Origin: a virus
Taxonomy: Duplodnaviria > Caudoviricetes
Reading direction: 5' to 3' (one strand)
Length of the DNA stretch: 64,000 nt
IMG/VR virus record: IMGVR_UViG_3300021167_000382
Coordinates: 32,001 to 96,000 of that record
Positions 1,305 to 46,887 of this stretch are shown one piece after another; within the stretch, counting starts at the first letter, position 1, and each line of letters starts with the position of its first letter. The position numbers and the translations under genes were made by a program. A model generated the notes under the pieces. The model did not search any database. It had not been told where the DNA came from and saw only the letters and a program-made list of their open reading frames with translations.

Positions 1305-2684
1305 TTAACGATGTGCAGCGATGGAAGCAGAAGCGTAGTCAGCACCAGCGTAAGCGGCGTTCATCAACGAAGCCGGAATGCGCTGACCGAGTTGGTTAAC
1401 CAGGCCGAAGATGGTGGAGATGGCTTCACGAGCTTCGTTCATGGCGACGCGGTCGTCGGACTTACCAGCGGATTCGACGGTCTTGGAAGCGGCCTTCAGA
1501 ACATTGTCAGCGGACTTCTGCGATTCGTCGATGATCTTCTGAATTTCCTTCTTGTTCTTTTCCATGTCTTCCACAGCAGAACAAGCCTTGGTGGCCAGAT
1601 CCAAACACTGGCTGATTTCGCCCTTGTTCAGCGTCTTGGCCTTTTCAGCTACTTCATTGTCAGCCAGGGAATCGAACGTCAGGGAGACGGTGGTGTAAGT
1701 CACGGTACCGGAACCAACCTTGAAGTTACGACGTGAACCTTCAGCAACGATGACTTGGCTGTTGGCGAACGGGCCGTAGGTTTCGGTGAAAGTGATGTCA
1801 CCGGCCTTGTTGACCTTACCTTTGCTCTTCACACCAACGCCAGTCTTGGCAATGGTAGCGATACCAGCAACGACGCTCTTGACCTTGTCGAAGGACGATT
1901 CCATGGCGGTAGCGAAAGCCTTGACATTGGCTTCAGTCACGCCAGAAGACTGGAGACTGGCAGTCATCGAGGAAACGTCAGATGCGATACCTGCAGAAAC
2001 GGCGGAAACGGCATTCGCAGCCTTGGCCAGATTCAGGGAGTTGGAAATGATGGTGGAGTAGGTGTCCAGATCAGCTTTCTTCTTGATCGAGATTTTCTTG
2101 ACCAATCCGCCGGTCAGTTCCTTTTCCTTCATCTTGGCATCAGACGAAATAGCCTGAGCACGCTTCTTCAGGTTTTCGATATGGTCACGGAGCGACTTGG
2201 CCGAACCAAAGATCTTGTTGAAGAATTGAACGATCTTTTCCCAAATGCGCTTGGCCATAGCCTTGATGGCTTCCCAAACGGACTTGATGGTTTCCGAGAT
2301 GGATTCCACGACCAACTTGGTCGAAGCCAGGCGGCTGTTGGCTTGACCGAAGGATTCGACGGCCGGGACGATGCGTTGTTGACCACGGAAGCCCAGGCGA
2401 TTATGGATGCGCTCGATAGCGATAGTGGCCACTTCAGCGGCTTGTTCGCTCAGACCTTCGCCAGATTCGACAGAGGCTTCGGCAACTTCACCGATTTCCT
2501 GAAGTTCTTCAACATCAGCAGAAGCTTGCTCGATATCACCGATGTCGGTGTTGATGTCACCGGCTTGTTCAGCGACTTCAGCGCGGTCTTCACCGACAAC
2601 GACTGCTTGATCGGCAGCTTGTTCGAGGCTTTCGGCGCCCAGGTTCTCTTCTTGAGCTTGTTCCATTGCAGCGATAATACCCAT
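1305..2684 (-). CDS. Internal head (inner-body/ejection-type) protein with cleavable acidic propeptide
   Basis: Likely start MGIIAAME at 2684 (AAAGGAA SD); acidic N-terminus with AME, GAES, SVES, AVES sites, then a 'SVWEAIKAMAKRIWEKIVQFF' helix typical of phiKZ head paralogue families; strongly biased codons. Confidence 0.75.
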   Translation of the reverse strand: MGIIAAMEQAQEENLGAESLEQAADQAVVVGEDRAEVAEQAGDINTDIGDIEQASADVEELQEIGEVAEASVESGEGLSEQAAEVATIAIERIHNRLGFRGQQRIVPAVESFGQANSRLASTKLVVESISETIKSVWEAIKAMAKRIWEKIVQFFNKIFGSAKSLRDHIENLKKRAQAISSDAKMKEKELTGGLVKKISIKKKADLDTYSTIISNSLNLAKAANAVSAVSAGIASDVSSMTASLQSSGVTEANVKAFATAMESSFDKVKSVVAGIATIAKTGVGVKSKGKVNKAGDITFTETYGPFANSQVIVAEGSRRNFKVGSGTVTYTTVSLTFDSLADNEVAEKAKTLNKGEISQCLDLATKACSAVEDMEKNKKEIQKIIDESQKSADNVLKAASKTVESAGKSDDRVAMNEAREAISTIFGLVNQLGQRIPASLMNAAYAGADYASASIAAHR

Positions 2685-2808
2685 GATTCTTTCCTTTGTA
2701 ACAGTTTTGTACCAAACGTTTGGTGACTTATAGAGGTGCGTCAGCTGTGACACAAACGCATTCAGTGCATCATAGGAGCACCGACCACTGCTAAGTCAAA
2801 CAGTAGAT

Positions 2809-4302
2809 TTAAGGAGTAGTTGGTTTCAAGACCTCAATATTCTTTTCCACGTAACGCAACACGCCGCTCACGTAGTCGGAAGAGAAGTCATGGATGTCAA
2901 TCGCACCAGGAAGGTAAACCTTCGTAATAAACGATTGCTTCAGATAGATCACTTCAACCAAGGACTCACGAAGGTTCTTAGCTTGAGCATCTTCTGTTAA
3001 CCAACTAAAGTAATTCTGAAAATTCGGTTTCAGTCGCTCAGCTGCTAGTTCAAGTTTCTTATAAAACGAAACATGACTTGAAGCTTTGTTGACAACCACT
3101 TCTAGCCCATTGAGAAGGCGTAGGAGAGATTGTTTGTCCATATAATTCACCATGGAACTTGTTTTTGGTGCTTGCGGGTTAACGCCTAGCACTAAGTAGC
3201 TCTCTTGATAAGCCTTACTTACTTCAGACATATCGTCAGATCGAGCTGCTGCCATAATGATATCTTTACGAGGCATTGCTGCCATCAGTATCGTTTTCAT
3301 TGGAAGAGGGTGTACAAAGACCGTTGTCTCAACGAGCTCCGGGGCTTTGTCATATCCAAGTACGGTTTTCCGCATGAATCCGGAGCTTAATGCATGGGTT
3401 TCAAGGTAGTGAACCACTTCAACCCTAGTATTCCGCTGACAAACTTCAATAACACGCTGCATGGTTCCAATTTCATTATGAATACCCTGATCGATGTCAC
3501 CTACAACCACATCAAGCAGTTTATCCATGGCTGAAATGGACTTCATTGGCGAGATCTCTGATCCTACTGTAAACAATGCAGCAACAGCCTCATCCTGGAA
3601 AGGTTCAGGCTGCATGACCTTCACACTATCCGGGAGTCCGTCAAGAATACTCCTCAGACGCTGTAGTCGGTTGCTGTGTTTCTTGAATGAATGCGTGTGT
3701 TGAAAATAGGCACGAGACACAGCGCTCCGCATCTTAACAAACGATTTAAACAACCGTGTCAGAAGGTATGAAACACCAGAACGAAGTTTGGCATAGACTT
3801 TGGGACCATACTCGACACCAAGTTCCTTCATGTAGACAGCCAGCTCAGTAGCTATGTGTAATGCATAACCTGAGAGCGCTTTAACGCCGTTCCAAGCCAT
3901 GCTACCAGTTTTTTGAAGTAGTGTTTCTTCACCGAAACTCTCAACCGCGAATCGACTATAGTGGTCTTCTGTGCGGAGACTTTCCGTTGCTACCGTGGTT
4001 AGTTTTCCGTCTATGACTTCCATATCCGATTCTTCAGTCTCAGCATCTTCAGGGGTATCATTACCTCCATCAGTGTCAGTAGCTTCTTCATTTGTGTCAG
4101 GTGTTTCATCGGATGCGTTGTCTGAACCACTGTCAGCCGCTTCACCCTCTTCTTCAACTTTCTCAGCATCCTCGACCTGCTTTGCTTTTTCCAAATACAA
4201 ACGGTCGTGTTCAGGTAGTGCTGCGTCACTGATATCTTTAGTGAGAACCTGGGTAATCGACAGTGTCGGGTCCAGATTCTCACAAGCTCGAATGATTCCC
4301 AT
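2809..4302 (-). CDS. Virion head protein with acidic propeptide
   Basis: Likely start MGIIRACE at 4302; acidic tract, ATES and AVES motifs; located in the head gene block. Confidence 0.65.
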   Translation of the reverse strand: MGIIRACENLDPTLSITQVLTKDISDAALPEHDRLYLEKAKQVEDAEKVEEEGEAADSGSDNASDETPDTNEEATDTDGGNDTPEDAETEESDMEVIDGKLTTVATESLRTEDHYSRFAVESFGEETLLQKTGSMAWNGVKALSGYALHIATELAVYMKELGVEYGPKVYAKLRSGVSYLLTRLFKSFVKMRSAVSRAYFQHTHSFKKHSNRLQRLRSILDGLPDSVKVMQPEPFQDEAVAALFTVGSEISPMKSISAMDKLLDVVVGDIDQGIHNEIGTMQRVIEVCQRNTRVEVVHYLETHALSSGFMRKTVLGYDKAPELVETTVFVHPLPMKTILMAAMPRKDIIMAAARSDDMSEVSKAYQESYLVLGVNPQAPKTSSMVNYMDKQSLLRLLNGLEVVVNKASSHVSFYKKLELAAERLKPNFQNYFSWLTEDAQAKNLRESLVEVIYLKQSFITKVYLPGAIDIHDFSSDYVSGVLRYVEKNIEVLKPTTP

Positions 4303-5889: not shown

Positions 5890-7017
5890 TTAGAACGTCG
5901 GTGCACGGCCTTCAAGCAGCACACGCATGATATCATTGATATCGGGACCCTTCTTATTACCGGAAGCTTTCAACGAACGAACTGAGATCGTTGAAGGTTG
6001 TGCAATACCGTTGAAATAGAAGTTGATGATCTCGCGTTCCTGATCCACCACCGCGATGATCATGGCGTAGGTACCCTGGAAGATCTTCTCACGACCATCC
6101 TTGGAATTGAAACGGAAACCCAACTTAGCTTCGATAGCTTCAGCGGCATCACTGGAGATAACATACAGATTCGTCGAAATAGCCAACGATGGATTCTTGG
6201 TCAGAAGACCGTAACCACGGTTCGCACTAACACGACGTGTCATTTCCTGCAATGCACCGGACTTGTCCTTGATCGCAGCACGGCGATATTCGTCAATCAA
6301 ATCCTGACAGAAGATCATGTCCTTGATCAACGAGATACGGCCAGAACGCCAGCTATGGTAACGTTCTACCAAAGACTCTTGTTCCTTGCGGTGGGTGAAG
6401 ATGTAGTTCAGCGAGTCATTGTTGACAATGTAAGGTGCCAAGCGAATGGTGATAGGCACAGTAACGGTACAGACAGGAGAACGTGCATCCGGTGCCGTAT
6501 TCGGTACATCGATGTCTACATTGATCAGCTTACCAACGGCCAGATTCTCAAGTTCGTAGAGAACCTTAATAGTATCTGCTTGACGATGTGCATCTTCCAT
6601 AGCCATCACACGACGTGTCGGCAACGAGAACTGCATCGATTCAGAAATCAGAAAGTTCGTTACGGTATTCTGAACCGCATCGTGGCGACCTTGAAGCATG
6701 AAACCGGTGCTATCACGATTCGGATTCAATGCATCCAGAATCCGAACGACTTCGATATTACGAACAGCTGTCGTCATCATGGAGATCGCTTGCAGGAAAT
6801 ACCCTGCATAGATCGATGTCATGGTATTCAACAGCGGGGTCAGGTATTCCAGATTGGCGCAGTCTTGAGAGATCAGCGTCATCGGTTCAGCACGAGTGAG
6901 TTTAGTCAACTGTGTCAAGGAGTTATCCGTGACATGACCAGCCACATTAGTCTTGAAATAGTCAACTACACGAGCAACGGTACTCAGTGCGCTGTTTATC
7001 GTGGAGATCGGGTCCAA
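5890..7017 (-). CDS. Virion structural protein (phiKZ gp89-like)
   Basis: TTG start at 7017 with AAGGAG SD; 'SLTQLTKLTRAEPMTLIS' and 'AGYFLQA' motifs; internal AME site. Confidence 0.65.
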   Translation of the reverse strand: MDPISTINSALSTVARVVDYFKTNVAGHVTDNSLTQLTKLTRAEPMTLISQDCANLEYLTPLLNTMTSIYAGYFLQAISMMTTAVRNIEVVRILDALNPNRDSTGFMLQGRHDAVQNTVTNFLISESMQFSLPTRRVMAMEDAHRQADTIKVLYELENLAVGKLINVDIDVPNTAPDARSPVCTVTVPITIRLAPYIVNNDSLNYIFTHRKEQESLVERYHSWRSGRISLIKDMIFCQDLIDEYRRAAIKDKSGALQEMTRRVSANRGYGLLTKNPSLAISTNLYVISSDAAEAIEAKLGFRFNSKDGREKIFQGTYAMIIAVVDQEREIINFYFNGIAQPSTISVRSLKASGNKKGPDINDIMRVLLEGRAPTF

Positions 7018-7160
7018 AGTTAACTCCTTTTTAGATATTGGATAACGGTTTTTTAACCACATTGTTTAACGGCAATCATAAGATCAGAACGCCTCTATAA
7101 ATATAGGGTTTAATTCCATAAAACAAAAATCGACTGGTTAATGCTATTTAGAAAGAAACT

Positions 7161-8255
7161 ATGTCTATCCTCTCACTGTCGATGGATGATTTCTTCTCAA
7201 AGATGCCGACTGGGTCGCTGGAACGCGCCATCGGAGTTAGTCTAAGAGGAATCGACCAACTACAAGCACCGGGTGCTATCCCTATCAACAAGGATATGCC
7301 CGGTTTCACTTTCTTCACGCGTCCTCAGCTGAATATGCAGATGGACAATCTTCGGAACGTTCGACAGTTCTCAAGTCTACTGAGTAAGAACCCTGTCAGC
7401 ATGCAGACTTACATCCGAACCATGCTCGACCCACGTTTGATTGAGGGTGTTTCTTTTAAGGGTAAGACTGGACACCCTGTTCCATTGGAAACTGTGCAAT
7501 GTCCTTTAGTTGACAATTACAATGCATTCATCCCACCCCTCACGAATAACCTGCTATCCATGTCTGGTTGGCCGAGTATCTCTGTACCAGTGAACACATC
7601 TGCACCTGGTCTCTACAATGAATCACAGACCATCGTCGATGGCCGCGTGTTTAATTCAGAAGCATTTGACATCACAGCGAACTTTCGCAATACTCGGGGT
7701 GATGTAATTCTGTATCTGTTCTATACCTGGGCTGTCTATATGTCCATGGTATTCGAAGGACGCCTGGTTCCGTACTTGGATTTCATTTCTGAAAACGAAC
7801 TCGACTATAACACGCGTATTTACCGTATTGTGACTGACTACACGAAAACACGCGTGTCCAAGATCACTTGCACACTGGCTTCAATTCCAGTCGGTGTTCC
7901 AGTTGGTGATGCATTCGATATTCCTGGAGATAAGCCGTATCTGGAATCCAATCGCGAAATCTCTATGCGATTCGCCTGTAACGGGGTTCGGTACTTTGAT
8001 GACCTAGTAGCAAAGGAATTCAATGCTACTGTTGTTATCTTTAATAAGGCTATGTCTGACAACTATCGGCCTAGTCTGATGACTAAGGTACCTTATAAGA
8101 GCTACTCGCTTTTCAAAGGTCTCTGTTATCCAAGAATCAATCTAGACACGGCTGAGCTAGAGTGGTGGACAACGAATGAAATCGCTAGCCGTATCTCCCA
8201 GCGCTATCTGAATGCGCTACCTGAAACCAATTCCGAAGAATACGAAGGAGATTAA
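7161..8255 (+). CDS. Virion/baseplate structural protein (phiKZ gp88-like)
   Basis: 'GFTFFTRPQLN' and 'DYNTRIYR' motifs recalled from this family; divergent from the gp89-like gene. Confidence 0.65.
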   Translation: MSILSLSMDDFFSKMPTGSLERAIGVSLRGIDQLQAPGAIPINKDMPGFTFFTRPQLNMQMDNLRNVRQFSSLLSKNPVSMQTYIRTMLDPRLIEGVSFKGKTGHPVPLETVQCPLVDNYNAFIPPLTNNLLSMSGWPSISVPVNTSAPGLYNESQTIVDGRVFNSEAFDITANFRNTRGDVILYLFYTWAVYMSMVFEGRLVPYLDFISENELDYNTRIYRIVTDYTKTRVSKITCTLASIPVGVPVGDAFDIPGDKPYLESNREISMRFACNGVRYFDDLVAKEFNATVVIFNKAMSDNYRPSLMTKVPYKSYSLFKGLCYPRINLDTAELEWWTTNEIASRISQRYLNALPETNSEEYEGD

Positions 8256-33847: not shown

Positions 33848-33856
33848 ATATACATG
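33848..33856 (-). promoter_or_regulatory. Early promoter core (CATGTATAT) upstream of chimallin
   Basis: Shared core of the repeated motif. Confidence 0.55.
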
Positions 33857-44461: not shown

Positions 44462-45445
44462 TTAGATGACTAAGAAATCATCCGTAGGGTTCCGATCCAC
44501 TACAACTGCTTTAACCGTTGCAGGTTTGCGGTGTTTCGAAACCTCATCTTCCAGACTCTGAAGCGTGTCTGGAAAGATCCCTTGCCGGGTTACCAGATGC
44601 ACCGGCGTGGCCAGCTGAAGACGTCCAGCGACCTTTTCATTCAGCTCACCGTAGCTATGGTACGGAACCATAATACCCGGTGAGTGATCTTCATCGGCCT
44701 TAACGATCGTCACCACCGTAGAAACCGGGCAGTGGTCATTAGCCAGAACCGCCTTCACGCCGGAAGTCAGTTCCAGTGCTACGATACCTGGTGCGTAATC
44801 ACTAACCTTATTGTAATTCAGGAAGTTTTCCAGATCCATGCGATCCAGGCCTTTGTTTTCACCAGACCAAACCGCAGACAGGAAGAGCACCATGATACGA
44901 GCAAGGGTATCGACATCGGCCAGCGTCGGATATTGCGAGTTATCCAGGTAATAGCAAGGCACTGGACGATCGAATGCCTCAGCCAGTTTCTGATACGTCA
45001 TGATGGTGTCACGAACGTTATCAGCTTCCTTGATACTGGTTCGAGAACCCACCATCACTACAACGACGTTCTTCCCACGGGCCATGAGGTCTTTGGTCAG
45101 AATATTACCGATCAGAGAGCCCGACCCACCAGACCCAGAATGCACCACGATACTCAGATCACCCGGTTCCCAGCGACTCACGATATCCGTCACGGCCTGG
45201 CGAGCGTGTTCCACATTCGTGGCACGGATCTTACCAGAGCCGTCGACCAGGTTATGGCGGCTTCCGATGTGGATGAACGAAGATTCGAAGCCTGCATCCG
45301 GCAGATTACTGTGACTGGTATCGATCATACCAAAAGTCAAGTCAGCGTAGCCTTTAACATCCTTAGCCGCCACCTGCATCAACGGCATCACGATGTTGAT
45401 ACCGCAACCACCAACCGCATAAACCGTTACTCGGTTATTTTTCAA
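44462..45445 (-). CDS. phuZ: Phage tubulin PhuZ
   Basis: 'VYAVGGCGINI', 'IDTS.SN', 'GSGKIR', tubulin signature 'SGSGGSGS', 'LDRMDLENF', acidic C-terminal tail. Confidence 0.92.
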   Translation of the reverse strand: MKNNRVTVYAVGGCGINIVMPLMQVAAKDVKGYADLTFGMIDTSHSNLPDAGFESSFIHIGSRHNLVDGSGKIRATNVEHARQAVTDIVSRWEPGDLSIVVHSGSGGSGSLIGNILTKDLMARGKNVVVVMVGSRTSIKEADNVRDTIMTYQKLAEAFDRPVPCYYLDNSQYPTLADVDTLARIMVLFLSAVWSGENKGLDRMDLENFLNYNKVSDYAPGIVALELTSGVKAVLANDHCPVSTVVTIVKADEDHSPGIMVPYHSYGELNEKVAGRLQLATPVHLVTRQGIFPDTLQSLEDEVSKHRKPATVKAVVVDRNPTDDFLVI

Positions 45446-45459
45446 AGCAATTCTCCTAA

Positions 45460-46302
45460 TTAATCAGAGGGTAAAGAAACCAGATGCTCAGATTCAATTT
45501 CATTCTGAGCGATATGCGACTGAACACGAACTTCCCGAGCACGAAGGAGTCTATCCAACGTGATCTTACGTAAAGTCATGCTCTGTATTTCAAGATCACT
45601 ATTCTGCTGACCACGCCGAGCACCTGAGGTAGCTAGGTATCTACGACGGTTGGATTTGAGTTCTCGATCGATCGTCAATATCCGATCACACCATGCGGAC
45701 AGAACCTCGTCCTGGTTCGTATTCTGGTTATATCGAACCGATTCATGGAGTGTGTAAAGCCAGTAAGAGCCATCGTCCATACGTTTGAATAAGTGCACAT
45801 GTGCTTTATTGGAGATGGGGAAACGAGACGACTTTAAATAGAGTTCAAGTTCTGGGCAGTGGAGCATTTTAAATTTGTTTTCGGTATACTCAACTGCGGT
45901 GCTGTCGATAATATAAAAGCGCTGTGGATCTTGGTGTTTCTGGAACTGAGGTCGATTGATCCGTTTCTGACGAAAGTCATTCCACTCGCTCAGCCAACTT
46001 ACTAGAATACCCTTCAATATTCCAGGCGTCAACAACCCTTCCTCAAATGGAGGATAGTTGGATTCATTCATGAACTTCAAAGTCTCACGTTCAAGTTCCT
46101 TCAACGTGAAAGTCTTTGCTCGTGCTAAATCATCCGCATAGTACTTTGTTAGCATGAGTAGATGGTTGGCAATCATCCGTGCCATGCTAAAGAAACGTTC
46201 CAATGCAGCGATTTGTATCGAGTCCATTTCCAAACGTATCGCTCGATAGTGGACATGGAGAAAGACCTTCTCCTTATCCATGTTAGATGTTTCCATCATC
46301 AA
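45460..46302 (-). CDS. TnpB (IS605 OrfB)-like N-terminal protein lacking RuvC and Zn-finger
   Basis: By-eye colinear similarity to the TnpB HTH/REC/WED region; no GIDxG, xEDL, CxxC or RD motifs. Confidence 0.6.
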   Translation of the reverse strand: MMMETSNMDKEKVFLHVHYRAIRLEMDSIQIAALERFFSMARMIANHLLMLTKYYADDLARAKTFTLKELERETLKFMNESNYPPFEEGLLTPGILKGILVSWLSEWNDFRQKRINRPQFQKHQDPQRFYIIDSTAVEYTENKFKMLHCPELELYLKSSRFPISNKAHVHLFKRMDDGSYWLYTLHESVRYNQNTNQDEVLSAWCDRILTIDRELKSNRRRYLATSGARRGQQNSDLEIQSMTLRKITLDRLLRAREVRVQSHIAQNEIESEHLVSLPSD

Positions 46303-46395
46303 TATCCTTTCAACTTGTATTCGTGTTCATTTCAAATAACTCATCGTTCACGGTTAATCTATCTAAGAAGATAGCAGAGATCGCTACCCATCGGT

Positions 46396-46414
46396 TCATG
46401 TAAGATATACATGA
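46396..46414 (-). promoter_or_regulatory. Early promoter core within a palindrome (TCATGTA-N5-TACATGA)
   Basis: Core ATATACATGA at 46405-46414 plus inverted repeat. Confidence 0.55.
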
Positions 46415-46852
46415 CTTCATTATCAGTAGTCACAGGAATACCATTACCCACTAGGTAAGTAACTTAAACAAAAGAACCCTACCAATGTATCGACAATTAC
46501 TTAGCAGACTTCTTCTCTACCGGACTAGCAGTTTCGATAAGAAACTGCCGAGGTGGAGGAGAAGGGTGCGATGCTGCCGACACATGCTACGTGCTACACC
46601 TACTTAGAAATATTTTCATTCTACTATCTCTCTATCTATTGGCTCGTGATGATTTAAAAATTTACGAGCTTTCGAGAAGTCGACTGAACGGAGTGAAGGA
46701 GCGGATCGAAAGCGAGCTTCCCTACCTCAGTGACATGGACACAACGCCGAAGGCTGTGTGGACAGGACACTCTAACTTCCCGCAACGCGGGGGGCGAAGC
46801 CCAACAACATTTTTTAATATTTCGAATATCATATTTACAGACGTTCGCATCA

Positions 46853-46887
46853 TGTGACGGATAGGCTTTGATGGCCTATCCGTCACA
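46853..46887. terminator. Long hairpin in the divergent intergenic region
   Basis: tgtgacggataggc-tttgatg-gcctatccgtcaca. Confidence 0.55.

Follow-up and report, generated by a model that had tools for sequence, protein, structure and literature searches.

The locus carries a RuvC-less TnpB derivative gene on the minus strand at 45460..46299 of the window, which is the whole 64,000-nucleotide stretch of DNA that was analysed. It is followed at 44462..45445 (minus strand) by the tubulin gene phuZ, the next gene of a probable operon. The 280-aa ORF described in the earlier note is real: it runs from 46302 to 45460 and encodes 280 aa counted from a TTG, 279 aa from the ATG at 46299 and 278 aa from the ATG at 46296. 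The last of these is the likely start, being common to the closest homologues and lying 8 nt past the Shine-Dalgarno sequence AAGGA (46305..46309, minus strand), which is moderate and not strong as had been claimed. The gene does end 14 bp ahead of phuZ, with its stop at 45460 and phuZ running from 45445 (PHROG 4733, E 2e-62). An 88-aa ORF at 46591-46857 was rejected as probably spurious; no call was present at that position in relatives.

The virus record is 210,129 bp long with a 141-bp end overlap and is therefore probably complete. The window phage is assigned to the phiKZ-like, nucleus-forming Chimalliviridae. Strong PHROG matches were obtained for phuZ and for a split DNA polymerase at 41046-38869, and a 612-aa gene at 33731-31893 occupies the position of chimallin in the related phage L003 and is identified as chimallin by this synteny. 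The window PhuZ is at most approximately 34% identical to PhuZ of cultured phages, which makes the phage distant from the cultured ones. In another relative (L058:1-1966, minus strand), the gene in the terminase position encodes 1016 aa, compared to approximately 755 aa in relatives, and has a weak Hint_2 match indicating a probable intein.

An early-type phage promoter was found at 46395..46438 (minus strand), with a CATGTATAT core at 46413-46405 and a TCCTGT box upstream. Genome-wide there were 16 copies of the motif, or 20 under a looser pattern; every one is on the minus strand, and almost all lie 43-125 nt ahead of an ORF. Window copies are at 1217, 33856, 38378, 46413 and 54882, and a copy at approximately 193700 of the genome precedes a 1.5-kb stretch free of ORFs. 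The promoter was retained upstream of the TnpB-like gene in relatives. Because virion-RNAP promoters of such phages are recognisable by an AT-rich motif of approximately 10 nt ahead of early operons (PMC7598289), it is sound to infer that the short TnpB-like gene is expressed early. The proposal that it shares a promoter with chimallin held in part: the core at 46413 is also found at 33856, but it is a general motif with 16-20 sites and denotes no special link between the two genes.

TnpB ancestry and loss of the nuclease domain

The AF2 model of the window protein (pLDDT 83) had its best Foldseek match to TnpB (8H1J, E 9e-9), and the match list was filled by TnpB, Cas12 and Fanzor. In the VIA alignment, residues 13-192 of the model were placed on TnpB residues 1-180 (Z 13.2, rmsd 3.4 over 169 residues). 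The WED plus REC domains of ISDra2 TnpB comprise residues 1-176 (PMC10097598), and the structural match coincides with WED plus REC only. This recognition lobe, residues approximately 13-192 of the window protein and equivalent to ISDra2 TnpB 1-180, is encoded at 45724..46263 (minus strand). Profile searches gave the same picture: HHalign against 14 full-length TnpBs aligned residues 22-192 with a probability of 98.8% (E 8e-17), PHROG 506 was matched at E 4.6e-4, and PF12323 was matched weakly in six of nine close members. No match was obtained in Pfam or NCBIfam with the window protein alone as query. These findings clearly show that the 278-280 aa protein is a true TnpB derivative, and that its colinearity with the N-terminal half of TnpB, first proposed from motif resemblances, is far beyond chance. 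The structure search against TnpB/Cas12f recommended in the earlier note returned the recognition lobe.

Similar fragments were seen elsewhere. Two uncharacterised proteins in BFVD, A0A386K639 of Dickeya phage JA11 (362 aa) and A0A1S6L3E0 of Erwinia phage Yoloswag (325 aa), matched the model over only approximately 185-200 columns, which corresponds roughly to a TnpB recognition lobe, and are possibly further domesticated TnpBs. In the ESM Atlas there were many unrelated clusters of proteins of 190-260 aa with the N-terminal region of TnpB alone. TnpB derivatives without RuvC may thus form a broader class that has been overlooked.

The RuvC strands, the D-E-D catalytic triad and the zinc finger are all missing from the short TnpB-like protein. 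The lack of RuvC and CxxC motifs, originally reported for the window protein, extended to the family, with neither motif in any of 30 aligned members and no RuvC strands in the model. Because the nuclease domain is missing, the protein cannot cut.

After the WED domain, a spacer of approximately 19 residues, compared to approximately 46 residues (the first RuvC strands) in TnpB, is followed in both the model and the HMM alignment by two long basic helices and then the C-terminal end. This basic helical hairpin (residues 198-273; 45481..45708, minus strand) contains 14 K/R in 62 residues and is a probable RuvC alpha1/alpha2 remnant. In the family alignment, R244 is invariant and L248 and R250 are near-invariant. 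The family HMM placed the hairpin weakly, in register, on ISDra2 TnpB 220-264, pairing R244, L248 and R250 with ISDra2 R257, L261 and K263, and several members carry a His at the position equivalent to ISDra2 H262. In TnpB, the omega-RNA is held by RuvC alpha1/alpha2, with H262 and K263 contacting its pseudoknot (PMC10097598). A language-model (Atlas) search with residues 188-268 ranked PF01385 clusters at the top with a score of 0.90, which is uncalibrated for parts of proteins and into which context may leak. HHalign of the hairpin against the 14 full-length TnpBs was not significant (probability 0.2%), and a sliding profile (PSSM) of the hairpin against full-length TnpBs remained below significance. 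Taken together, the comparisons are suggestive, and the hairpin is probably homologous to the RuvC alpha1/alpha2 RNA-binding helices.

Descent and selection

Approximately 30 relatives were found, all of 225-280 aa, with identity down to approximately 20%. These were retrieved via neighbouring genes; IMG/VR pattern scans with the protein itself gave no match, nor did tblastn with the window protein against 50,697 phage records. The dN/dS ratio was 0.083 in two independent close pairs, window/L004 and L001/L016, compared to 0.095 for phuZ; beyond close pairs, synonymous sites were saturated. Reading frames were intact and length was uniform throughout the family.

All carriers of the gene were placed in one clade in the gp32-like tree (support 100/100) and in the PhuZ tree (100/99), and the tree of the TnpB-like gene largely agreed with both. 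Two long rows, L044 and L015, were unsure in the trees, both outside the carrier clade. The clade consists of uncultured Chimalliviridae of approximately 200-217 kb. In every context read (14 distinct), the TnpB-like gene was the first gene after a divergent intergenic region beside gp33/gp32-like genes, save for one with a 77-aa ORF ahead of it. It lay directly before phuZ in L001, L003-L008, L016 and L058-L060 and was separated from phuZ by one gene in L009, L010 and L035. The idea that it leads the phuZ operon is right as to its first position and, in most carriers, its contact with phuZ, but the phuZ-adjacent synteny is not constant. A nested lineage (L021-L023) kept phuZ and lacks the TnpB-like gene at the locus, and a profile search found no member of the family in five cultured genomes (FLC9, RSL2, RP12, LucasX and phiKZ), all of which have phuZ. 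The gene is confined to one clade of Chimalliviridae and is not part of the core genome of that family. Moreover, signs of mobility were missing: the gene is single copy at a fixed locus, and its tree agrees with those of core genes. No other TnpB of the usual kind was found in the 210-kb genome.

These findings show that the TnpB-like gene is old, clade-specific and dispensable, and that it has been inherited vertically. Its domestication, which the earlier note had suggested, is very probable in view of the repeated dN/dS of 0.083, the constant length and the vertical descent in one clade, and a single origin by one capture is likely. The picture of a gene unique to this genome and decaying is contradicted by the approximately 30 relatives under purifying selection. 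Literature searches, of incomplete coverage, found no report of this short TnpB-like family.

In the TnpB tree, the family was joined to full-length TnpBs by a long branch of 1.42. The full-length TnpBs of L009, L027 and L020 formed one clade (support 93), a phage-resident lineage; descent of the short family from these was not supported, as it was not nested among them in a tree with few TnpBs sampled. The L009 copy (6338-7795, minus strand) retains its RuvC motifs intact, and no tnpA was seen next to it. It has inserted into the intergenic region beside the short gene, in head-to-head orientation, and its structured 3' flank finishes in a GTCAAC-type end. L009 also encodes a 437-aa RRXRR+HNH protein (IscB-like; 2569-3882, minus strand) between the gp32-like gene and the terminase region.

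Upstream elements, function and rival explanations

A conserved nested stem-loop at 46505..46568 on the plus strand is a candidate partner of the protein, as RNA or as single-stranded DNA. It lies approximately 95 nt upstream of the promoter of the TnpB-like gene, on the opposite strand, and is present in one copy in the genome. It consists of a variable outer helix, a fixed YACC/GGT core, a purine-rich internal loop and a variable inner hairpin with a G...A loop. Covariation was observed in nine lineages, in which eight different inner arms were all perfectly paired and seven different outer arms were paired. The loops were G...A in eight of the nine; such loops suit stable DNA hairpins as well as RNA. 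No pseudoknot or transposon-end sequence was evident by eye in the stem-loop. Gene-less phages yielded no copy of it, and neither did four basal carriers (L007, L009, L010 and L035); kinship confounds the association between stem-loop and gene. The stem-loop may belong to an origin and be unrelated to the TnpB-like protein.

Folding of the upstream region gave z values of -3.3 (RNA) and -3.0 (DNA) on the plus strand, which is antisense to the gene, and -1.8 on the minus strand. Further hairpins and short CG-rich repeats at 46640..46815 (plus strand) are partly generic to the intergenic region and independent of the gene. A GC hairpin (GNA/GNNA loop) with short CG-rich repeats recurs in gene-less L022 (4020-4360) and in FLC9 (L011, 10752-11471), where it is flipped, and therefore it is not tied to the TnpB-like gene. 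The element at 46640-46815 appears origin-like and might serve as a replication origin or as a primase site; no clear origin emerged from GC skew.

In the search for a guide RNA, the gap from the TnpB-like gene to the next gene ranged from -4 to 72 nt, with no room for a 3' omega-RNA. No RNA overlapping the 3' end was indicated: synonymous identity there (0.37-0.44) did not exceed that of the remainder of the gene. Rfam returned nothing credible at the locus. The self-target search found no match of at least 13 nt above chance in the genome, promoter copies aside; a search of this kind misses 9-nt guides and host targets. One lineage has a 77-aa ORF separating the TnpB-like gene from its early promoter (L001:9694-9927 and L018:1670-1905), and a conserved 5' leader RNA is less likely for that reason.

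The regulator role suggested in the earlier note is reasonable, and the reading that we tentatively favour is of a protein that binds nucleic acid early in infection as a regulator, has no catalytic activity and has the upstream stem-loop as its first candidate ligand. An IS200/IS605-type tnpB was captured, probably just once, by the ancestor of the uncultured clade of approximately 200-217 kb; it shed its transposon, RuvC sheet, catalytic triad and zinc finger, and vertical descent has since kept it in first position after an early promoter. The WED+REC lobe is retained together with a basic hairpin in the position of the omega-RNA-holding RuvC helices, and because both are kept, the protein is most likely a structure-recognising binder made at the start of infection. 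The leading candidate for its ligand would be the covarying stem-loop, which is on the strand running into the divergent gp33/gp32-like genes, and binding there might tune the divergent promoters or the origin-like region without a programmable guide.

A protein that still uses a guide, that is a minimal TldR-like RNA-guided DNA binder repressing a phage or host promoter with a scaffold RNA supplied in trans or by the upstream antisense region, is rather unlikely. In its favour, the lobe that binds the TAM survives, as probably do the helices that bind the scaffold, and there is structure in the upstream region. C-terminal truncation is tolerated in TldRs, and their guides can be as short as 9 nt (10.1101/2023.11.30.569447; PMC13622181), which is below the limit of the self-match search. 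However, the 3' gap of -4 to 72 nt comes without extra 3' synonymous constraint, no self-match above chance, Rfam match, or evident pseudoknot or transposon end was found, and the aromatic pair Y309/W313, which in TnpB and TldR stacks the first base pair between guide and target, is in the deleted part. The more elaborate version, in which a module of approximately 270 aa would load a new scaffold RNA, supplied by the antisense upstream element or in trans, and would program phage gene control, perhaps in a pair with the 211-aa protein described below, is unlikely. A decoy or shield against RNA-guided nucleases, which would absorb omega-RNAs or Cas12f-type guides or cover TAM sites and so blunt host nucleases or the homing TnpBs of rival phages, is distinctly improbable. 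Early expression suits counter-defence and full-length TnpBs reside in phages of this group (L009, L027 and L020), one of them in this very intergenic region of L009, but L009 was invaded beside its short gene and the short family falls outside the phage-resident TnpBs (branch 1.42). Typical anti-CRISPR genes are neither stable in position nor slow-evolving, unlike the TnpB-like gene, and the phage nucleus already shields the DNA from RNA-guided nucleases.

The spindle-adaptor idea of the earlier note did not fare well. Here the upstream element would act as a centromere and the protein would link DNA to the PhuZ spindle, as in tubCRZ plasmid partition. The order of element, DNA-binding gene and tubulin gene, probably co-transcribed and adjacent in most carriers, fits such a role. 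In contrast, another gene stands between the two in L009, L010 and L035, and phage DNA in studied nucleus-forming phages is inside the shell, away from the spindle. Because the nested lineage (L021-L023) and the five cultured phages keep phuZ without the TnpB-like gene, an adaptor is very unlikely. The complex prediction with PhuZ (score 0.01) was counted neither for nor against an interaction. Finally, a functionless, decaying IS remnant has a negligible likelihood. Truncated tnpB genes are common, and Bacillus phage Shbh1 has one of 256 aa beside its tnpA, but that fragment is a simple C-terminal truncation, still has the RuvC-I motif and differs little from intact TnpBs, unlike the short family. 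The short family, with dN/dS of 0.083 twice, intact frames, constant length and vertical descent, has been under purifying selection over saturated synonymous distances, by which decay is refuted.

Relation to known TnpB derivatives

A second candidate was found in the same genome, a 211-aa ORF (G000:C1:25057-25692, minus strand; L061:2558-3193) followed by a terminator hairpin, with a 210-aa orthologue (28% identity) in the basal clade member G001 (L062). Its single-sequence model was poor (pLDDT 52) and the sequence evidence weak; in the model, a strand, helices and strands follow one another as in WED+REC, and the seven best fold matches were TnpB, Cas12f, Cas12n and Fanzor (best E 4e-3). 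Judged by this model, the protein is probably a second, shorter domesticated TnpB derivative or an old paralogue. The first, longer family shows that strong selection can preserve the recognition lobe, with at most two RuvC helices, over a very long period, and the second gene suggests that this happened twice in the same genomes. The short TnpB-like gene adds a clade-specific early regulator candidate for nucleus-forming phages.

In gene position, the short family resembles TubR of the tubCRZ type III partition systems, a small nucleic-acid-binding gene just upstream of a tubulin gene; the fold is unrelated, the link to phuZ is not constant, and phuZ works without the short gene. Compared to ISDra2 TnpB (PDB 8H1J, 8EXA, 8EX9 and 8BF8; PMC10097598), the fold and order of WED+REC and the core residues are alike, and RuvC alpha1/alpha2 are probably alike. 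In contrast, the short family is without the RuvC sheet, the equivalents of D191/E278/D361 and the zinc finger, and it is a fixed phage gene under purifying selection without a transposon or a 3' omega-RNA.

The fliC- and oppF-associated TldRs are likewise immobilised, nuclease-dead TnpB derivatives in stable gene neighbourhoods. One TldR clade is prophage-borne, and TldRs keep a degenerate RuvC domain and a scaffold of approximately 100 nt plus guide (10.1101/2023.11.30.569447; PMC13622181). Whereas TldR has a bilobed fold with degenerate RuvC, the short family has only a two-helix hairpin after WED, and no guide was found; at most it works like TldR, and on the RuvC fold it falls outside that class. 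The dCas12f-sigmaE (PDB 9N9C), Cas12k and Cas12m proteins, which gave weaker fold matches, also reuse the recognition lobe for binding without cutting, but are of at least 350 aa and have a RuvC-like fold, a defined guide RNA and a partner. No phuZ- or jumbo-phage-linked clade is named in the accessible part of the survey of exapted TnpB/Cas12 (PMC10691335). Should the short protein prove to be guided, it would be a much smaller guided binder than dCas12f or TldR. Known tamed TnpBs retain a crippled RuvC domain, whereas the short family retains the recognition lobe and at most two RuvC helices, and it offers a natural test of the smallest nucleic-acid-binding part of TnpB/Cas12.
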